A stretch of 32,000 nucleotides of DNA from Moraxella nasovis (lineage in GTDB: Bacteria; Pseudomonadota; Gammaproteobacteria; Pseudomonadales; Moraxellaceae). Below are positions 2,561-24,826 of this stretch, piece after piece. Every line of letters starts with the position of its first letter. The first letter of the stretch is position 1. A program made the position numbers and the translations under genes. The stretch is taken from contig NZ_CP089976.1 in NCBI RefSeq assembly GCF_022701215.1, positions 540,001-572,000 on the forward strand, in the 5' to 3' direction. Below the pieces are notes generated by a model. The model was not told the DNA's origin and did no database searches. It saw only the letters and a program-made list of their open reading frames with translations.

Positions 2561-2651
2561 AAATATATTTTAAATAAACCTTTATCATTGCTAAAAATTG
2601 CATTACAATGATGAAATATATTCATTTAAAGCAATAAAATTAAGGATTGTT

Positions 2652-3077
2652 ATGGCAAATTTCTCCCCTTCTTTACAATTTCAAAAACGTTGGCAAGCCG
2701 CTCCAGCTCAAGTAAAGGATATGTTTCACCAAGAATTAGACGACATCATTGATATGCTAAAAGGCGACACGTTAGCCAAAGATTATCGCTTTCGTCATGG
2801 TAATTTTGCCGACACCATCGAGCCACTACTCACCAAGCATCAAGAAAATCTTAGCACATCAACCAGCACGGTTCTTCAAAACCCAGAAAGTCTTTCTTTA
2901 ACAGATGATAAATCACCAATAAATGAGCATGAATTAGAACTCATGGAAGAGCGTATCATCGCCAAACTAAATAATCAGCTTGATGAGTTCGTTATAGAGC
3001 ATATAGATCAGCTGTCTGATGAGCTTAGATCATGGCTAAAAACCGCCGTAAAAAGTGAAATAGCACAGTATAAATAA
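2652..3077 (+). CDS. Hypothetical acidic protein, no family recognised
   Basis: The ORF-track frame is 2598..3077. I prefer the ATG at 2652 (MANFSPSL...), which is preceded by AAGGA at about -7. The protein is acidic and helix-prone, and I recognised no motif. Confidence 0.55.
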   Translation: MANFSPSLQFQKRWQAAPAQVKDMFHQELDDIIDMLKGDTLAKDYRFRHGNFADTIEPLLTKHQENLSTSTSTVLQNPESLSLTDDKSPINEHELELMEERIIAKLNNQLDEFVIEHIDQLSDELRSWLKTAVKSEIAQYK

Positions 3078-18778: not shown

Positions 18779-19873
18779 TTAATTCGCAAAGTTCGTGGCT
18801 CTTTGTAAATCCAACTCCAACGGATTGGAAAGCTCACAAAACCATTTAGCCCATCGTTCTGATATAGACGTTAGAGATATTTCATCAAATAGAGTATTTT
18901 CAGATTGAATTGCAAAAAATCGATTTAGTGAATTAGCTAAATTTTTATTTTCTAAAAATCTTCTACAAATCCATAAATGAATATCTACTAATTGCAAGCC
19001 AACATTACTATCACTTGACTTATAATCTATATCTATTGATGGCATATTTGATAAGTTTATACTTGGTAAAAATGGACCAATTTGTAAATTTGTGTCTGTA
19101 CTATTACTGATATTTTGATATAGTTTAGTTAGCCAATTTTGTGATTTGTTAAATTGAGACTGAATATCCACAATAATTTTTGTTGCACTTGATTGATTTT
19201 GTTCAATTCTATGACAAATCATAAAAATTACTGATTGAAAGGATGTGATATTTGGTGAAACTTGTAATATATTTTCTTTGGAATGAACATTGTAACCAAT
19301 CTCGGAAGGATTTTTTATCACCCATTTCATTGCATCGGAAATAATCTCAACTAAGCGTTTATCTGAAAAACAAGATGCTTTAAGTAAAATTTGTTCACAA
19401 ATATCAACCAGACTAGTTTCTGTCTCTTTTGAATTTATATTTATGCGTGCTTTCCAAGCCTGATTAGCTAAATCATCATCAAATAACTCTGCGATTGCAA
19501 GTAGCAAAGGATATCTTAATGGTGTCCAATACCAATTCCAAGGAACAGCAGGATTAACACCTTGGTCGAAGACTTGGTCAAAAAAACTGATAATTGCAAA
19601 ATCTTTTTTATTTAGCCTACAACAATCAAAATATATGTCATATTTTTGATATATATCTCCTAAATCATCAATAATTCTAACTAATCCACCATTACCCAGC
19701 TCATTAGCATGCAATTCACTCACTGACAATTTATTCTTTAAATTTATAACATCCTGTTGGGCTACGATGTCTAAATCAAATTTAGAACTCAATACTCCGT
19801 AATATAAGTATGGTTGGTCTAAATCAAAAAGGTTTGAACCAGAATTACCACTCTCATCTATATAAAAATACAT
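18779..19873 (-). CDS. DUF3800-family protein, function unknown
   Basis: The start at MYFYIDESGNSG matches the DUF3800 N-terminal IDESG hallmark. A C-terminal GLQLVDIHLW segment resembles the family LQxAD motif. The gene is visibly much more AT-rich than its neighbours. The family call is from memory and has not been searched. Confidence 0.7.
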   Translation of the reverse strand: MYFYIDESGNSGSNLFDLDQPYLYYGVLSSKFDLDIVAQQDVINLKNKLSVSELHANELGNGGLVRIIDDLGDIYQKYDIYFDCCRLNKKDFAIISFFDQVFDQGVNPAVPWNWYWTPLRYPLLLAIAELFDDDLANQAWKARININSKETETSLVDICEQILLKASCFSDKRLVEIISDAMKWVIKNPSEIGYNVHSKENILQVSPNITSFQSVIFMICHRIEQNQSSATKIIVDIQSQFNKSQNWLTKLYQNISNSTDTNLQIGPFLPSINLSNMPSIDIDYKSSDSNVGLQLVDIHLWICRRFLENKNLANSLNRFFAIQSENTLFDEISLTSISERWAKWFCELSNPLELDLQRATNFAN

Positions 19874-19920
19874 AACAATCCCTAAAATGCGCTTATATTT
19901 TTTAGTTAGCCTACAAACGC

Positions 19921-20220
19921 TTAGCAATTCTCACCACTGTCCTGACAGCATTTGTCCGTCAAAAACACCACCAACGCCATCATCAAATCCAAATTGGCGT
20001 AATAACGCACAAACCGCCCTTGCTGTTCGCTTTGCACCAGCCCAGCATGGCTTAATGTTTTAAGATGAAAAGAAAGGCTGTTGGGGGCGATGCCCAGTAT
20101 TTTTGCCAAATCGCCTGCAATCATGCCCTCCGTTCCCATTTTGGTAAGTTCCTGAAAAATCGCCAAACGAATGGGCGATGACAGGCTTTCAAAGAGTAGG
20201 CTTGCGTTTTGAGTGTTCAT
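19921..20220 (-). CDS. arsR: ArsR/SmtB-family metalloregulator with a C-terminal Cys triad (copy 1)
   Basis: 99 aa wHTH protein ([26 protein letters not shown]). The C-terminus is CC-x6-C (KCCQDSGENC), resembling the Acidithiobacillus-type As(III) site. Confidence 0.88.
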   Translation of the reverse strand: MNTQNASLLFESLSSPIRLAIFQELTKMGTEGMIAGDLAKILGIAPNSLSFHLKTLSHAGLVQSEQQGRFVRYYANLDLMMALVVFLTDKCCQDSGENC

Positions 20221-20325: not shown

Positions 20326-20351
20326 AACCCAAATTGAAAAACCAAAAAACA

Positions 20352-20418
20352 ATGCCGTCTGAAAGATTGGTTTTCAGACGGCATTTTGGCAAAAACCGAC
20401 CTTTCAGGCTGTCTGAAA
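20352..20418. repeat. Inverted pair of exact AT-DUS 12-mers (hairpin terminator of the CueR-like gene) plus a TTTCAGGCTGTCTGAAA palindrome
   Basis: ATGCCGTCTGAA lies at 20352-20363 and its reverse complement at 20373-20384. The palindrome lies at 20402-20418. Together they form a composite junction repeat. Confidence 0.85.
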
Positions 20419-20422
20419 CCGC

Positions 20423-20806
20423 TTACTGTAAATTTTGTAATATCGCACAATGTGAACGCTCATCGCCTGCACATTCGTCGTGCCACGCCTGCAAGGTATT
20501 TTTCATCTGTTCCAACTGGGCGATTTTTTGAGCCAACGTGGCGATATGGCTGGCGGTCAGGGCTTTGACATCACAGCTTTTGCGGTTGGGGTTGTCTTGC
20601 AAGGCGAGCAATTCGCCGATTTGTGCCAAGCCAAAGCCCACTTCTCGGGCGTGGTGGATAAAGTGAAGCCGTGCCAAATCCGCTTGTTTGTAATCACGGT
20701 AGCCTGAAAAGGTGCGTTCGGCAGGGGTAAGCAAGCCCAATTTTTCGTAATCTCGGATTTGTTTGCTGGATAGACCGGTGATTTTGGCGACTTCGCTGAT
20801 TTTCAT
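20423..20806 (-). CDS. MerR-family Cu(I)-type metalloregulator (CueR/HmrR-like)
   Basis: The internal start MKISEVAKITGLSSKQIRDYEKLGLL gives 127 aa. It has Ser77 in RKSCDVK and a C112-x7-C120 loop (CAGDERSHC), as in CueR. The ORF-track extension to 21103 crosses the promoter and was discarded. Confidence 0.88.
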   Translation of the reverse strand: MKISEVAKITGLSSKQIRDYEKLGLLTPAERTFSGYRDYKQADLARLHFIHHAREVGFGLAQIGELLALQDNPNRKSCDVKALTASHIATLAQKIAQLEQMKNTLQAWHDECAGDERSHCAILQNLQ

Positions 20807-20853
20807 GGTTTTTTCTCCTTTACAAAACGTAACATAAAAGTTTTGAAAAACCC

Positions 20854-20884
20854 TTGACCTTGACGCAAGGTTAAGGATTATTAT
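20854..20884 (+). promoter_or_regulatory. MerR-type promoter with a 19-bp spacer and dyad operator
   Basis: It reads TTGACC (20854-20859), a 19-nt spacer, then TATTAT (20879-20884). The dyad ACCTTG-ACG-CAAGGT sits inside the spacer, and CTTGACCTTGACGCAAGGTTAAG is a 23-bp near-palindrome. Confidence 0.75.
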
Positions 20885-20968
20885 ATGTCCATACACAGCA
20901 AAACAGCAATACTGCTTGTGTATCCGTCCAGAACATTCTGGTTTATCAATCCAAAACGGAGAAATGTT

Positions 20969-21097
20969 ATGAACATCAAAAACAAAACTTGCCAATGTCC
21001 CAACTGCCCTTGTGGCACACACAACGCCAACTGCACTTGCGTTTGCTGTGCGGACTGCCAATGCACTACCGAGCAATGCTCGTGCAACTGCCAATAA
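20969..21097 (+). CDS. 42-aa Cys-rich metallothionein-like peptide
   Basis: The peptide is MNIKNKTCQCPNCPCGTHNANCTCVCCADCQCTTEQCSCNCQ, with 13 Cys in 42 residues, no aromatic residues, and CxC/CC motifs. A GGAG SD lies 7 nt upstream. It sits about 80 nt downstream of the MerR-type promoter. Confidence 0.65.
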   Translation: MNIKNKTCQCPNCPCGTHNANCTCVCCADCQCTTEQCSCNCQ

Positions 21098-21203
21098 GGG
21101 CAAACGCTGTTTTTAAACAAGTCCATGCCAAGTCATCACGGCTTGGTATGGCAAACAAACCAACTTAATTTATCCATTTTTATCCATGCTTTAAGGAGCT
21201 GTT

Positions 21204-21647
21204 ATGAACAATTTAAAAAAATACCTTACCGTTGCCGTGCTGTCTGTGGCACTTGGCGGTGTGGGCGGATTTGCCATTGCCAATACCACCCAGCAAAATA
21301 ATATGTCGCAAATGCACGAAAACATGATGAACAATCACGCCAAAATGGGGGCGATGAACCACGACATGAATGCCATGAACCAAAATAAAGCCAACCAAGC
21401 ACCGCACACCCAAGAATATATGCAGTCGATGAACGCCCTGCACGATGAGATGATGGTAGGCGTTGCCGACAGCGATGCCGACCGAGCCTTTGCCCGCTCC
21501 ATGATACCGCACCATTTGGGGGCGATTAAGATGGCAGAAGTTCAGCTTAAATACGGCAAAGACCCAGAAATGCGAAAACTCGCTGAACAAATCATCAAAG
21601 CCCAAGACCCCGAAATCAAACAGATGGAGCAATGGCTCAAAAAATAA
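21204..21647 (+). CDS. DUF305-family (CopM-like) periplasmic Met/His-rich protein
   Basis: It has a signal peptide, a Met/His/Asn-rich N-terminal region, and the MIPHHLGAIKMAE motif typical of DUF305. Confidence 0.85.
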   Translation: MNNLKKYLTVAVLSVALGGVGGFAIANTTQQNNMSQMHENMMNNHAKMGAMNHDMNAMNQNKANQAPHTQEYMQSMNALHDEMMVGVADSDADRAFARSMIPHHLGAIKMAEVQLKYGKDPEMRKLAEQIIKAQDPEIKQMEQWLKK

Positions 21648-21717
21648 ACCTGTCGCCCGCCAAGCCAGCTGGTTTGGTCGGGCAAATCTTGCCTTTAAAT
21701 AGGATTTAGGAGTTTTT

Positions 21718-22209
21718 ATGCGTAGCATGAAAAAAGCATTGGCAACAGGCGTGTTAAGTGTTTCTATCATCGCAGGGGCGGTATCCTTGTTTGTCATGAA
21801 CCGCCCAGCACAAGCCGTCAATCATGTGGAAGTGTGGAAAGACGCCAATTGCGGTTGTTGTGGCGAATGGGTAGAACACATGAAGAAAAACGGCTTTACC
21901 GTGAGCGTCCACAACACGGGCAACCGTGAAATGCGTGCCAAGCTCGGTATGCCTGAAAAATTTGCGTCCTGCCACACCGCCAAAGTGGGCGGTTATGTGA
22001 TTGAAGGACACACGCCGGCATCCGACATCAAGCGTCTGCTCACACAAAAGCCTAATGCCCTAGGTCTGGCAACCCCCGCCATGCCACTTGGCTCGCCCGG
22101 TATGGACGGCGAAGCCTATCAGGGTAAAAAGCATGATTACAACGTGCTTTTGGTGCAAAAAGACGGCACCAGCCAAGTGTATCAGGCTTACAAGGGCAAC
22201 CAAAATTAA
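21718..22209 (+). CDS. DUF411-family (CopG-like) periplasmic copper-binding protein
   Basis: It has a signal peptide, the CGCC motif (DANCGCCGEW), the CHT motif, and MPLGSPGMD. Confidence 0.85.
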   Translation: MRSMKKALATGVLSVSIIAGAVSLFVMNRPAQAVNHVEVWKDANCGCCGEWVEHMKKNGFTVSVHNTGNREMRAKLGMPEKFASCHTAKVGGYVIEGHTPASDIKRLLTQKPNALGLATPAMPLGSPGMDGEAYQGKKHDYNVLLVQKDGTSQVYQAYKGNQN

Positions 22210-22214
22210 ACAAG

Positions 22215-22252
22215 AACGCTGTTTTAAAAACAGCGTTTTTTTCAGACGGCAT
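22215..22252 (+). terminator. Intrinsic terminator followed by an exact AT-DUS
   Basis: An AACGCTGTTTT / AAAACAGCGTT hairpin with a T-run spans 22215-22243. It is followed by TTCAGACGGCAT at 22241-22252. Confidence 0.8.
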
Positions 22253-22282
22253 AGATTTTTAATTTTCAGGCAGCCAAAACGG

Positions 22283-22687
22283 TCAAACTTCACAATTTTT
22301 TTGCAGTCCCGTTATCACTTTGCAATGTGCCACGTCGTTTTCTTGGCAACCTTGCAAGGCGGTCAGGTGGGCTTTCATGTGCTGTAATTGTGCGATTTGC
22401 TCGTCAATCCGTGCGATATGGCGAGTGAGCAGTTCGGTGGCGTTATCACAGCGGTTGTGCGGTTGGCTTTGCATTTGCTGTAAGGCTTTGATTTCTTCAA
22501 CAGAAAAACCGACATGACGGCAGTTTTTGATGAATTTTAGGGTGTCTGTCATTTCTTGGTTAAACAGCCGATAGCCGTTTTCGCCACGAATGGGGCTAAT
22601 CAGCCCCATTTTTTCATAATAACGGATACTTTCAAGCGACAAGCCGACTTGCTCGCTGACGGTTTTTACCTGCAATAAATTTTTCAT
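22283..22687 (-). CDS. MerR-family divalent-metal-type regulator (ZntR/CadR/PbrR-like)
   Basis: The start MKNLLQVKTVSEQVGLSLESIRYYEKMGL gives 134 aa. It has Cys80 (HNRC) plus C114-x7-C122, the Cys pattern of divalent-cation MerR sensors. Confidence 0.85.
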   Translation of the reverse strand: MKNLLQVKTVSEQVGLSLESIRYYEKMGLISPIRGENGYRLFNQEMTDTLKFIKNCRHVGFSVEEIKALQQMQSQPHNRCDNATELLTRHIARIDEQIAQLQHMKAHLTALQGCQENDVAHCKVITGLQKNCEV

Positions 22688-22694
22688 AAAACGC

Positions 22695-22725
22695 TTGACC
22701 TTGTTCCGACAACAGGGTTTATGAT
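22695..22725 (+). promoter_or_regulatory. MerR-type promoter with a 19-bp spacer (drives the CDF gene)
   Basis: It reads TTGACC (22695-22700), a 19-nt spacer, then TATGAT (22720-22725). The spacer holds an imperfect dyad ACCTTGTT-n5-AACAGGGT. Confidence 0.7.
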
Positions 22726-22759
22726 AAACCATAAACAGTTATTTTAAAAGGGTAAAATC

Positions 22760-23368
22760 ATGTCTTGCCAATGCTCTACGCAAAACAACGCCGTACACTC
22801 GGACAGATACCGCAATATATTGTGGATTGTGCTTATTCTCAATTTCTCCATGTTTTTTGTGGAAGTCTTTATCGGCTGGCGGTCTGGCTCGGTGTCCTTG
22901 CTGGCTGACAGCTTGGACTTTTTGGGCGACAGTGCCAACTATCTCATCACGCTGTTTGTGTTGGGCAAAACCTTGCAAACTCGTGCCAAAGCCAGCCTGA
23001 TTAAGGGTATTTCTATGGGGCTAATGGGGCTTTGGATTTTGTTTACAACTTTATACAATCTATTTATGGGCGATGTACCAAATTATCACGATATGGGCGT
23101 GGTCGGCTTACTTGCTTTGGCGGTCAATGTAACCGCAGCGTGGCTGTTGTACCATTTTCGTGAAGGCGACAGCAATATGCAAAGCGTTTGGCTGTGTTCT
23201 CGCAACGATGCCATTGGCAACGTGATGGTGGTTTTGGCGGCGGTTGCGGTGTATTTTAGCCAATCCAAAATCCCTGATTTGCTGGTGGCAGGCATTATGG
23301 TGTATTTATCACTATCTGCAAGCAAAGCAATCATCAGTAGAGCTTGGTCGGAGTTAAAGGAGCATTGA
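22760..23368 (+). CDS. Cation diffusion facilitator (CDF) family transporter, short form
   Basis: 202 aa with LLADSLDFLGDSANY (a TM2 DxxxD-type site), about 6 TM segments and an N-terminal MSCQCS. There appears to be no room for the usual C-terminal cytoplasmic domain. Confidence 0.82.
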   Translation: MSCQCSTQNNAVHSDRYRNILWIVLILNFSMFFVEVFIGWRSGSVSLLADSLDFLGDSANYLITLFVLGKTLQTRAKASLIKGISMGLMGLWILFTTLYNLFMGDVPNYHDMGVVGLLALAVNVTAAWLLYHFREGDSNMQSVWLCSRNDAIGNVMVVLAAVAVYFSQSKIPDLLVAGIMVYLSLSASKAIISRAWSELKEH

Positions 23369-23385
23369 GATTTGTCTAAAATAAA

Positions 23386-23421
23386 AACGCTGTTTTGCTC
23401 ATGAAAAACAGCGTTTTTTTT
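23386..23421 (+). terminator. Intrinsic terminator of the CDF gene
   Basis: The stem is AACGCTGTTTT (23386-23396), the loop is GCTCATG, and the partner arm is AAAACAGCGTT (23405-23415), followed by a T-run. It uses the same stem sequence family as the terminator at 22215. Confidence 0.8.
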
Positions 23422-23493
23422 CAGGCAGTCTGAAAGGTCGGTTTTACAAATATGCCGTCTGAAAATTTGTCCGAACGGGTTTTCAGACGGCAT
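23420..23493. repeat. Composite junction repeat: TTCAGGCAGTCTGAA palindrome plus an inverted pair of exact AT-DUS
   Basis: The palindrome lies at 23420-23434. ATGCCGTCTGAA lies at 23452-23463 and its reverse complement at 23482-23493. Confidence 0.85.
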
Positions 23494-23527
23494 GGGTTTC
23501 GTTGGGTCTTGACCCAACCTTGTATCT

Positions 23528-23728
23528 CACCACCAAGACTAGCTATCTTGGTGATGGCATGGTAGATTATACCATCACCCTAAGTTACTTGGCAGTTTCT
23601 ACCCAACCTGAGTACTTTGATGCTGTCTCGTAGATTAAACCCGAGTAACTTTTTAATCATCGTACAATCTGAATGGTATCCAAGCGCTTGATTGATTTTC
23701 AATCATGACGCTGAATGAACAAGGCTAG
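23528..23728 (+). ncRNA. Candidate IS110 bridge (guide) RNA in the left non-coding end
   Basis: Structure is visible by eye. CACCAAG (23531-37) can pair with CTTGGTG (23547-53). A GGTG..ATGGTA-loop-TACCAT-CACC hairpin spans 23550-23579. A TGATTGA-TTT-TCAATCA stem lies near 23690-23708. The position matches where IS110-group elements encode their bridge RNA. Confidence 0.4.
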
Positions 23729-24736
23729 ATGACAATGACTTATTATGTTGGTATTGATGTTAGTAAGCACAAGCTGGATGTGGCTTGGCTTAAAGAGTTA
23801 AGTACAATGAAAGTCAAAACCAAAGTCTTTAATAATCACTTTGATGATTTTGAACACATCATTCATTGGCTTAAAACCAATCTTGGTACAGATGTCAGCT
23901 TCAATGACATTCATCTTATTATGGAAGCCACAGGGGTGTATCATGAACCTTTGGCGTATTATTTACACGATTTGGGTTTTAAAGTCTCTATCATCAATCC
24001 TGCCTTTGTCAAGCACTATGCAGACAGTTTAGGCGTAAGACAAAAGACAGATAAAAAAGACAGTATTGTCCTTGCCAGATACGGCAGAGCCACCCACCCT
24101 GATGCTTGGATTGCCCCAAGTATTGAAGCTCGTCATTTAAAGTCTTTGCTTTCTCGTCTTGATGCTCTAAATGAAGACTTACAACGAGAAGAAAACCGCA
24201 AAGAAAAAGCAGAAGTGGCAGACACAACCCCCATTGTTAAACAATCCATTGATGAGATGATTGTGGCATTAAAATTGGCAATCAGCAAATTAAACCAAGA
24301 CATTGACACTCATATCAACAACCACCCCAAACTTAAAGAAGAGCAAACACTCTTACAAAGCATCAAAGGAGTAGGACAAGTCATTTCAAGACAAATGCTA
24401 ACTCTGTTTAATACCAAGCAATTTAACAATGCCAAACAAGTCTCTGCCTTTTTAGGGTTAATTCCCAAACAACAAGAATCAGGATTGTTTAAAGGCAGAT
24501 CAAGACTTGCCAAAACAGGCAATGCTCAATTAAGAGCTAAGCTATATATGGCAGCAGTTGTTGCCACCAAGTACAATCCAGACATTAAAGACCAATACGA
24601 ACGCTTACAACAAAATGGCAAATGCAAAATGCAAGCTTTATGTGCTTGTATGCGTAAATTGGTACAAATCTGCTTTGGTGTGATCAAACACCAAACTCCC
24701 TACACCCCACAAGTTAGGATAGAAAATATGGCTTGA
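23729..24736 (+). CDS. IS110-family transposase/recombinase
   Basis: 335 aa with the N-terminal YVGIDVSKHKLDV (DEDD RuvC-like domain) and the C-terminal LQSIKGVGQVISRQML...GLIPKQQESG (Tnp_20 domain). Confidence 0.92.
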   Translation: MTMTYYVGIDVSKHKLDVAWLKELSTMKVKTKVFNNHFDDFEHIIHWLKTNLGTDVSFNDIHLIMEATGVYHEPLAYYLHDLGFKVSIINPAFVKHYADSLGVRQKTDKKDSIVLARYGRATHPDAWIAPSIEARHLKSLLSRLDALNEDLQREENRKEKAEVADTTPIVKQSIDEMIVALKLAISKLNQDIDTHINNHPKLKEEQTLLQSIKGVGQVISRQMLTLFNTKQFNNAKQVSAFLGLIPKQQESGLFKGRSRLAKTGNAQLRAKLYMAAVVATKYNPDIKDQYERLQQNGKCKMQALCACMRKLVQICFGVIKHQTPYTPQVRIENMA

Positions 24737-24780
24737 CAAGGGGTGAGGAGAGATGGTATCTACAAGCTGAAAACCAATCT

Positions 24781-24826
24781 TTCAGACGGCATTTACTTTT
24801 GATTTAGGCTTTCAGACAGCCTGAAA
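24781..24826. repeat. Composite junction repeat: exact AT-DUS plus TTCAGACAGCCTGAA palindrome
   Basis: TTCAGACGGCAT lies at 24781-24792 and TTCAGACAGCCTGAAA at 24811-24826, just downstream of the SulP stop on the minus strand. Confidence 0.85.

Follow-up and report, generated by a model that had tools for sequence, protein, structure and literature searches.

A cysteine-rich open reading frame behind a CueR-type promoter in Moraxella nasovis, a candidate copper metallothionein gene with relatives in the Pasteurellaceae

The cysteine-rich reading frame, its promoter and its operon

Moraxella nasovis carries, in a 32,000-nt stretch of contig NZ_CP089976.1 (positions 540,001 to 572,000; hereafter the window, from whose first letter all M. 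nasovis coordinates are counted), a short cysteine-rich open reading frame (ORF) that lies behind a CueR-type promoter divergent from a cueR gene and is followed by genes for a DUF305 and a DUF411 protein (Table 1). As judged from sequence, this 42-codon ORF is very probably a gene that was missed by the public annotation of M. nasovis. The predicted peptide, of approximately 4.5 kDa, contains 13 Cys (31%) and a single His, is devoid of Phe, Trp and Tyr, and arranges its cysteines in seven CxC, three CxxC and one CC motifs. It therefore has the low molecular mass (below approximately 10 kDa) of the operational definition of a metallothionein, as well as the high Cys content, the CxC, CxxC and CC motifs and the scarcity of aromatic residues. 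One frame holds 13 of the 14 TGY triplets on the plus strand of the ORF, and when the 129 nt were shuffled 100,000 times with dinucleotides preserved, a count of 13 in-frame TGY was never reached in any frame, the maximum being 12, in 14 shuffles. An initial annotation, made from the letters of the window alone, had described an ORF with this Cys and His content, no aromatic residues and a GGAG Shine-Dalgarno (SD) sequence, and all of these features are present. It had also anticipated that gene callers would miss the ORF, which proved correct: neither the 42-aa reading nor a 70-aa reading is present in a collection of approximately 15 billion proteins that includes the neighbouring M. nasovis proteins, and relatives of the ORF have mostly been called in the wrong frame or on the wrong strand, or skipped. 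Two overlapping ORFs, one antisense (20881-21126) and one in the +1 frame (20989-21168), were considered as genes and rejected, as they match no family and are not consistently open in relatives.

Table 1. Predicted features of the copper module in the window
Feature	Position	Strand	Evidence and remarks
Terminator-like hairpin 3' of cueR	20351-20385	-	Inverted pair of Neisseria-type uptake sequences, ATGCCGTCTGAA; terminator scan and search for DNA uptake sequences
cueR, Cu(I)-responsive MerR-family regulator, 127 aa	20423-20806	-	TIGR02044 156.2 bits, cut-off 147.4; WP_242748430.1
CueR-type promoter	20854-20884	+	-35 TTGACC 20854-20859, 19-nt spacer, -10 TATTAT 20879-20884
Predicted CueR operator, 21-bp dyad	20857-20877, centre 20867	+	ACCTTGA-CGCAAGG-TTAAGGA; sequence alignment
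Predicted 5' leader, approximately 78 nt	20891-20968	+	Start inferred from -10; RNA fold -17.2 kcal/mol, z -2.56
Leader hairpins	Terminal stem-loop 20892-20922; second 20928-20941	+	RNA fold
Shine-Dalgarno sequence GGAG	20958-20961	+	7 nt 5' of the ORF ATG; read directly
Cys-rich ORF, ATG start, 42 aa and stop	20969-21097	+	MNIKNKTCQCPNCPCGTHNANCTCVCCADCQCTTEQCSCNCQ; no signal peptide (by eye)
Intercistronic hairpin, 12-bp stem, no U tract	21121-21152	+	RNA fold; not an intrinsic terminator
copM-like DUF305 gene, 147 aa, signal-peptide-like N-terminus	21204-21647	+	PF03713 6.2e-18; NF049983 CopM 117.5 bits, cut-off 90
DUF411 (CopG-like) gene, 163 aa, signal-peptide-like N-terminus	21718-22209	+	PF04214 9.8e-26; WP_242748432.1
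Intrinsic terminator closing the operon	22215-22242	+	AACGCTGTTTT/AAAACAGCGTT then T7, then another DNA uptake sequence

The divergent gene had been described as CueR-like on the strength of Ser77, Cys112 and Cys120. Its product scores above the cut-off of the CueR model and has these three residues, together with Cys78, which the initial annotation had not mentioned. Homologues, when aligned, show little or no variation at S77, C112 and C120, and C78 is found again in a clade that contains the proteins of Actinobacillus pleuropneumoniae and Pasteurella multocida. Members of the CueR family that carry Ser77 sense monovalent ions. The codon for Cys78 (20573-20575) directly follows that for Ser77, the residue diagnostic of monovalent-ion sensors, and the motif KSC(D/E)V marks the clade of A. 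pleuropneumoniae, P. multocida and the CueR protein P0021, whose promoters drive DUF305 genes and not copZ-copA.

Aligned with E. coli PcopA and six related CueR promoters, all of which have spacers of 19 nt, the predicted promoter is in register base for base; in 5417 of 5426 genomes the E. coli sequence was confirmed to precede copA. The arrangement TTGACC-19 nt-TANNNT is found in E. coli, P. multocida, Glaesserella parasuis, the related locus L151, the copZ-copA promoter of locus L001 and M. nasovis, while A. pleuropneumoniae has TTTACC as its -35 and otherwise the same layout. Every one of these promoters contains a 21-bp dyad that begins at base 4 of the -35 and ends at position 18 of the spacer. 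In P. multocida this is the perfect 7-7-7 dyad ACCCTAA-CGCAAGG-TTAGGGT, in E. coli it is ACCTTCC-N7-GGAAGGT at the matching positions, and the operator centre ACGCAAGGTTA is identical in M. nasovis and P. multocida. Promoter spacing, for which 19-20 nt is characteristic, dyad register and the presence of a cognate CueR are thus all those of a CueR regulon. The initial annotation had taken a different dyad, ACCTTG-ACG-CAAGGT (20857-20871), as the operator. This 15-bp palindrome is indeed present in the spacer region; as an operator it was rejected, being absent from relatives and centred 3 bp upstream of the conserved register, and a tandem CCTTGA-CCTTGA duplication at the -35 accounts for it. 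At locus L002, where cueR and then DUF305 lie on one strand, a perfect palindrome, TTAACCTT-ATGTG-AAGGTTAA (L002 3950-3975), is found upstream of cueR itself, the gene for P0021 (66% identical and the closest CueR of KSCDV type). This palindrome and the 15-bp palindrome of M. nasovis both have the spacing ACCTT-N5-AAGGT, and because of this a shorter-spaced CueR site is conceivable.

The proposal that the ORF heads an operon with the DUF305 and DUF411 genes is in agreement with our analysis, as an intrinsic terminator follows the DUF411 gene. Since the hairpin between the ORF and the copM-like gene has no U tract, a single transcript from the CueR-type promoter is the simplest reading. The start of the copM-like gene differs between records (GenBank UNU74280.1, 100 aa; RefSeq WP_256462118.1, 147 aa), and the 147-aa form has an AAGGAG SD sequence and a signal-like N-terminus. 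The closest relatives of the DUF411 protein are from Conchiformibius and Neisseria (62-74% identity), where they lie in unrelated gene contexts.

Relatives in the Pasteurellaceae and selection on the cysteine frame

Searches made directly with the 42-aa peptide returned no relative. A word-index search of 5.8 billion proteins gave no match and an exhaustive phmmer search of 1.84 billion cluster representatives gave only two unrelated long repeat proteins, which are chance matches, and no small protein; such searches could detect only relatives of more than approximately 50% identity that had already been called as genes. At E <= 10 the M. nasovis peptide matches no Pfam family, including PF02069 (Metallothio_Pro) and the vertebrate, yeast, plant and other metallothioneins, and the Pasteurellaceae peptides described below likewise match none; in NCBIfam there is no match to the M. 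nasovis peptide at E <= 0.01 or to the Pasteurellaceae peptides at E <= 10. Among PDB sequences the single match, to a ribosomal protein, is insignificant (E 0.59). No match was found by tblastn of the peptide on plasmids, a search in which the BLAST low-complexity filter may have masked the query, by blastn of the M. nasovis region against plasmids, or by scanning viral contigs with the peptide. When the Cys skeleton was written as a DNA pattern (TGY at nine positions) and sought in metagenomes, (TGY)n microsatellites swamped everything else among the matches listed. On this evidence the 42-aa peptide belongs to no known metallothionein family, and the earlier statement that it does not resemble SmtA/BmtA agrees with the failure of every metallothionein model to match it. 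No MymT protein surfaced in the phmmer search of the 1.84 billion representatives, which is not a direct pairwise comparison, and the peptide has neither a Pfam match to the HMA domain of CopZ (PF00403) nor an MxCxxC motif. In the literature we found no account of a CueR-controlled Cys-rich peptide or of the Pasteurellaceae gene, with the proviso that coverage was incomplete and a prior description is possible.

Relatives of the locus emerged through its regulator. The nearest CueR proteins (60-66% identity) are from the Pasteurellaceae and Kingella, and at most of their loci copZ and then copA lie behind the divergent promoter. The KSC(D/E)V clade has another layout, in which cueR and the promoter are followed by a gap of approximately 400 nt and then DUF305, and a MerR/CDF pair flanks cueR on its far side. 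In A. pleuropneumoniae, P. multocida and a 24-kb plasmid of G. parasuis this gap contains an ATG-initiated ORF of 47-49 aa with 12 Cys, encoding MNADFVQNRHAHCGCQSCTGQNCRPDCQCQNGKPCICDDCTCNGCACES, MNDIIKNPNAHCGCQSC...CACES and MNDIIKNPNAHCGCQSCTGQNCNPKCNCQNGEPCICQNCTCGDCDCK, respectively; a pig-gut metagenome contig encodes a peptide that differs from that of A. pleuropneumoniae by two substitutions. A search of genome contigs with CopM found only distant cyanobacterial DUF305 loci, none with a small Cys-rich ORF, and DUF305 genes on Klebsiella plasmids lie in an unrelated transposon context. The operon of A. pleuropneumoniae (L142 1-1540(-)) continues into a gene for an HMBD and DUF2933 protein and one for a 777-aa P-type ATPase with YHS and HMBD domains, an N-terminal metal-binding architecture that is unusual compared with HMA-type CopA.

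Public databases record the Cys frame only as the hypothetical proteins WP_162028652.1 (A. pleuropneumoniae) and WP_278225724.1 (A. equuli). The frame that is annotated in P. multocida, A. pleuropneumoniae, Gallibacterium anatis, Rodentibacter, A. minor, P. langaaensis and Pelistega suis is the +1 frame (xFKTDTPIAAASLARGKTAV...), which in seven or more genera stands as a 'MULTISPECIES hypothetical protein' (e.g. F4HAF5_GALAU; L142 2664-2810(-)). On the G. parasuis plasmid an antisense ORF is annotated instead (WP_010787307.1; L153 5165-5344(-)), and at the P. multocida locus L148 no gene is called in 2602-3000.

Comparison of the P. multocida and G. parasuis ORFs indicates which frame is coding. 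The two differ at 28 of 141 nt, divided 8/4/16 over the codon positions of the Cys frame, and when read in that frame they give a ratio of non-synonymous to synonymous substitution rates (dN/dS) of 0.17, as against 0.99 for the +1 and 0.63 for the +2 frame. None of the 12 cysteines is lost, two of their codons having undergone synonymous TGC/TGT swaps, and 10 other residues differ (10 of all 35 non-Cys residues; 10 of 24 in the core, Fisher p 0.008). By this comparison the Pasteurellaceae Cys ORF is under purifying selection with its cysteines invariant, and the conservation of Cys that characterises metallothioneins is found within the Pasteurellaceae; the assertion that a real Cys-rich coding gene lies at the head of the operon is borne out in these homologues. 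The annotated frames evolve neutrally, with dN/dS of 0.99 for the +1 frame and 1.13 for the antisense frame of G. parasuis. One other antisense frame has a dN/dS of 0.19 and was rejected as coding, as it contains stops in G. parasuis and A. pleuropneumoniae; a low value is expected there, as this frame and the Cys frame have their third codon positions in common. At all four loci compared, the Cys frame alone is open with an ATG and an SD sequence.

Between the -35 and the beginning of DUF305, the DNA of M. nasovis and that of the Pasteurellaceae have blocks in common. These comprise a promoter block, TGACC-YTRAC-GCAAGGTTA-RGG, the start of the leader, CAT-CA-A-CAAAA-AGCAAT, the element GGAGAA-(N)-TGTTATGAAC, conserved in four aligned loci (M. 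nasovis, P. multocida, A. pleuropneumoniae and L143) and also in G. parasuis, and a block within the ORF, CGGACTGCCAATGC, that encodes DCQC. Of the five gaps within the ORF, four (18, 9, 3 and 3 nt) are multiples of three; the remaining one, of 1 nt, falls in an unreliably aligned part close to the 3' end. The neighbouring proteins are also related, CueR at 61-63% identity, the CDF transporter at 61% and the second MerR protein (MerR2) at 42-45%, and the M. nasovis DUF305 protein shares 50-56% identity with each of the DUF305 repeats encoded by the Pasteurellaceae gene. Homology of the M. nasovis and Pasteurellaceae loci is thus well supported by sequence, and the family of WP_162028652.1 and WP_278225724.1 is, on the same basis, the true family of the M. 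nasovis ORF. The two have in common a CueR-type promoter, a similar leader, SD-ATGAAC, a Cys-rich ORF followed by DUF305, and the DCQC core. The Pasteurellaceae members differ in their length of 47-49 aa, in having 12 Cys that are otherwise spaced, in a two-domain DUF305 protein and in the absence of DUF411, and the A. pleuropneumoniae locus differs further by the ATPase in its operon.

The surroundings of the module in the window include an ars cluster, crcB, a second MerR gene divergent from a short CDF gene, an IS110 transposase, a SulP gene and a type III methylase gene; no Rfam family was found anywhere in the window at gathering thresholds. The second MerR gene (22283-22687(-)), whose product matches CadR/PbrR best and stays below every NCBIfam cut-off, is divergent from a gene for a 202-aa CDF transporter (22760-23368(+)), and such a MerR2/CDF pair accompanies cueR at all of the Pasteurellaceae loci. 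Six exact Neisseria-type DNA uptake sequences (GCCGTCTGAA), where 0.07 would be expected in the window, all lie within 4.4 kb (20354-24790), several of them in or beside terminator-like hairpins after cueR, the DUF411 gene and the CDF gene. Because the six cluster there, the segment of the copper genes, MerR2/CDF and IS110 looks imported from a Neisseriaceae donor, which fits the best matches of the DUF411 protein in Conchiformibius and Neisseria. A DUF3800 gene (18779-19927(-)), with a GC content of 0.35 compared with 0.42 for the window, lies between arsR and arsC/ACR3/DUF6428 and looks like an insertion into the ars cluster.

A proposed function and its alternatives

We favour, with somewhat better than even confidence, the reading that the ORF is a genuine gene for a small cytoplasmic Cys-rich peptide that works like a copper metallothionein. 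In the mechanism that we propose, a rise in cytoplasmic Cu(I) would cause CueR, bound to the 21-bp dyad, to remodel the promoter with its over-long 19-nt spacer, and copper would thereby induce a single transcript, predicted to run from approximately 20891 to 22242, that encodes the peptide, the CopM-like DUF305 protein and the DUF411 protein. Once translated in M. nasovis, the peptide would bind several Cu(I) as a cluster through its 13 thiolates and one His, and would buffer copper in the compartment where CueR senses it. The peptide should stay cytoplasmic, as it is without a signal sequence, and the CopM-like and DUF411 proteins, with their signal-like N-termini, would act in the periplasm; the locations of all three proteins were judged by eye from their N-termini. 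The module as a whole would be a diverged relative of a mobile cueR/Cys-ORF/DUF305/merR-CDF island of the Pasteurellaceae.

Several observations weigh against this reading or its extension to M. nasovis. The M. nasovis and Pasteurellaceae peptides are not significantly similar (BLASTP E 0.84), and the evidence for selection is strictly from the Pasteurellaceae, from which it is extended to M. nasovis by inference. The expectation that homologous loci would keep the Cys pattern holds within the Pasteurellaceae, where 12 of 12 cysteines are conserved, and fails across the wider comparison, in which MAFFT aligns only eight Cys columns with M. nasovis and the Cys spacing differs. No second sequence resembling that of M. 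nasovis was found, and the neighbouring M. nasovis proteins are all singletons at 90% identity. Of the operators compared, that of M. nasovis has the lowest symmetry, 6 of its 10 pairs being complementary as against 7-8 in the others. Synonymous codon usage of the ORF scores -0.09 bits per codon, against +0.01 to +0.16 for genes of the window, which is weak evidence given 41 codons in imported DNA. AlphaFold, run on the single 42-aa sequence, gave a mean predicted local distance difference test score of 58.6 without a confident fold, as would be expected of an apo-thionein, so that the low score neither supports nor informs the reading.

The atypical codons and the low AlphaFold confidence, together with the lack of annotation and of any detectable protein homologue, are what would be seen if the ORF were a chance, untranslated frame in a non-coding leader or spacer. 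This is highly improbable given the shuffle test, the conserved SD sequence and ATG, the syntenic Cys-rich ORFs with their low dN/dS, the mostly in-frame indels and the fact that only the Cys frame is open at all loci.

The position of the peptide bears on its role. It occupies the copZ slot of the nearest canonical loci and therefore fits a cytoplasmic Cu(I)-binding role, of which a chaperone-like variant is possible. The peptide could then be a Cu(I) chaperone and not a store, replacing CopZ and handing Cu(I) on either to an exporter or to the route by which the downstream proteins are exported. That it fills the exact copZ slot behind the same promoter in related genomes, and that the A. 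pleuropneumoniae operon extends to a YHS/HMBD P-type ATPase, both speak for such a hand-off; the peptide, however, has no CopZ fold or motif, its 13 thiols suggest a multi-ion cluster over single-ion transfer, and the operons of M. nasovis and of P. multocida L148 contain no ATPase. We regard a chaperone as unlikely. The A. pleuropneumoniae operon also bears on the earlier proposal that the module represents sequestration rather than efflux. The observation behind that proposal stands, as no P-type ATPase or RND gene is present in the module or anywhere in the 32 kb of M. nasovis that were inspected. The proposal itself is unsupported, because the homologous operon of A. pleuropneumoniae continues into the HMBD/DUF2933 gene and the P-type ATPase gene.

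The RNA around the ORF offers another reading, in which the ORF is a cis-acting leader whose translation, perhaps stalled by copper or cysteine supply, tunes copM and DUF411 expression via hairpins, the peptide itself having no role. The leaders of P. multocida and A. pleuropneumoniae have a stem-loop at the place that matches that of M. nasovis, with a different sequence, and P. multocida has a 14-bp hairpin (z -2.90) at the equivalent intercistronic place. The leader and post-ORF hairpins of M. nasovis thus match those of P. multocida (L148 2829-2912(-) and 2602-2681(-)) and A. pleuropneumoniae in position, with z-scores of -1.9 to -3.0. A short ORF upstream of the main genes, flanked by hairpins at conserved positions, is what this alternative predicts, and at locus L151 the promoter runs directly into DUF305 with no small ORF. 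The module therefore exists without the peptide, which would be dispensable for it as an optional first cistron, and this is also a point against the metallothionein reading. Yet purifying selection acts on the amino acids, with all 12 Cys invariant while their neighbours vary, and therefore indicates a functional product. The post-ORF hairpin, moreover, has no U tract and lies at least 24 nt beyond the stop, and no alternative terminator/antiterminator pairing is evident. A pure leader function is accordingly quite improbable, and the leader and post-ORF hairpins may instead be elements of mRNA stability or processing that set the ratio of the peptide to the downstream proteins.

The neighbourhood of a second metal regulator raises the question of which metal the peptide would bind. 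A CadR/ZntR-like MerR gene and a CDF gene adjoin the module in M. nasovis and at all of the Pasteurellaceae loci, and Cys-rich thioneins readily bind Zn and Cd in vitro, so that the peptide might be a Zn(II)/Cd(II) thionein tied to the MerR2/CDF pair, its link to copper being incidental. The ORF, however, lies behind the CueR promoter and not that of MerR2, CueR sensors of the Ser77 type answer to monovalent ions, and a CxC-rich, His-poor sequence is typical of Cu-thioneins. We consider a Zn/Cd thionein very improbable. Lastly, a short Cys-rich peptide at a copper locus could be the precursor of a modified and exported metal-binding peptide, a metallophore of the ribosomally synthesised and post-translationally modified peptide (RiPP) type, as copper-binding RiPPs exist. 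At none of the loci examined does the operon or its vicinity include a gene for a maturase, a protease or an exporter, the peptide shows neither a leader/core architecture nor a signal peptide, and a RiPP precursor is an extremely improbable reading.

A broader form of the metallothionein reading, to which we give an even chance, is that these genes constitute an unrecognised family of CueR-activated bacterial Cu(I) metallothioneins that replace CopZ at the heads of copper operons on mobile metal islands of farm-animal respiratory bacteria, and that have gone unseen through misannotation. Hosts of the island would then include Moraxella, Actinobacillus, Pasteurella, Glaesserella, Gallibacterium, Rodentibacter and Pelistega, probably with a Neisseriaceae donor.

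Significance and comparison with known systems

If this reading is true, a third, unrelated bacterial family under CueR would add cytoplasmic copper buffering to the copper response of Gram-negative bacteria, for which efflux and periplasmic oxidation are the components commonly described. The metallothionein claim is easy to test, as the peptide is short enough for synthesis. Relatives occur in important pathogens of pigs, cattle and poultry and on a plasmid, adjacent to genes for a regulator and a transporter of Zn/Cd type. Since copper is a widespread additive of livestock feed, the locus may be a mobile copper-tolerance trait. There is also a lesson for annotation, since one conserved gene has been recorded in three wrong ways and correctly only in two Actinobacillus species, there as an unnamed hypothetical protein.

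Among bacterial metallothioneins, a 2020 paper names SmtA, for zinc, and MymT, for copper, as the only ones whose function had been studied by then (PMC7387436). Proteins of the SmtA type, in which the fold is zinc-finger-like and includes His ligands and aromatic residues, bind Zn and Cd and are controlled by an ArsR/SmtB repressor (PMC7387436). The M. nasovis peptide would resemble SmtA/BmtA (PF02069) as a putative member of the small bacterial metal-thiolate class encoded beside a divergent metal sensor. It differs in having one His and no aromatic residues, in its CueR activator and in the absence of any hidden Markov model match. CopZ, an HMA-domain Cu(I) chaperone, is in the nearest CueR relatives likewise encoded by the first gene behind the CueR promoter, and is cytoplasmic with Cu(I) as its ligand, as is presumed for the M. 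nasovis peptide; the latter differs by lacking an HMA domain and MxCxxC motif and by its many more thiols. Csp3 provides Cys-lined cytoplasmic Cu(I) storage in bacteria. The role proposed here is alike; Csp proteins, however, exceed 100 aa and fold as four-helix bundles, and no similarity between them and the M. nasovis peptide was found.

The likeness to fungal Cu-thioneins and to MymT that the initial annotation had pointed out holds for size and composition, and does not extend to any sequence relationship that we could find. Fungal Cu-thioneins are of comparable size, contain approximately 25-30% Cys in CxC and CxxC motifs with few or no aromatic residues or His, and are induced by copper. 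The segment CQCPNCPCG of M. nasovis recalls the CxCxxC runs of Saccharomyces CUP1, which with the Cu-MT of Neurospora crassa represents these proteins; by sequence the likeness is compositional and not homologous. MymT of Mycobacterium tuberculosis is a small cytoplasmic Cys-rich protein encoded by a short, easily missed gene, is induced by copper and is thought to buffer Cu(I), and induction and buffering would be expected of the M. nasovis peptide. MymT is controlled by repressors of the CsoR/RicR type, in contrast to the CueR/MerR-type regulator and promoter of M. nasovis, and unlike MymT the M. nasovis ORF and its relatives are found in Gram-negative hosts and the ORF heads an operon with putatively periplasmic DUF305 and DUF411 proteins. 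Among metallothioneins in the operational sense the gene therefore looks like a new sequence family with new regulatory wiring, for which MymT and the fungal Cu-thioneins appear, by analogy, to be the closest functional counterparts.

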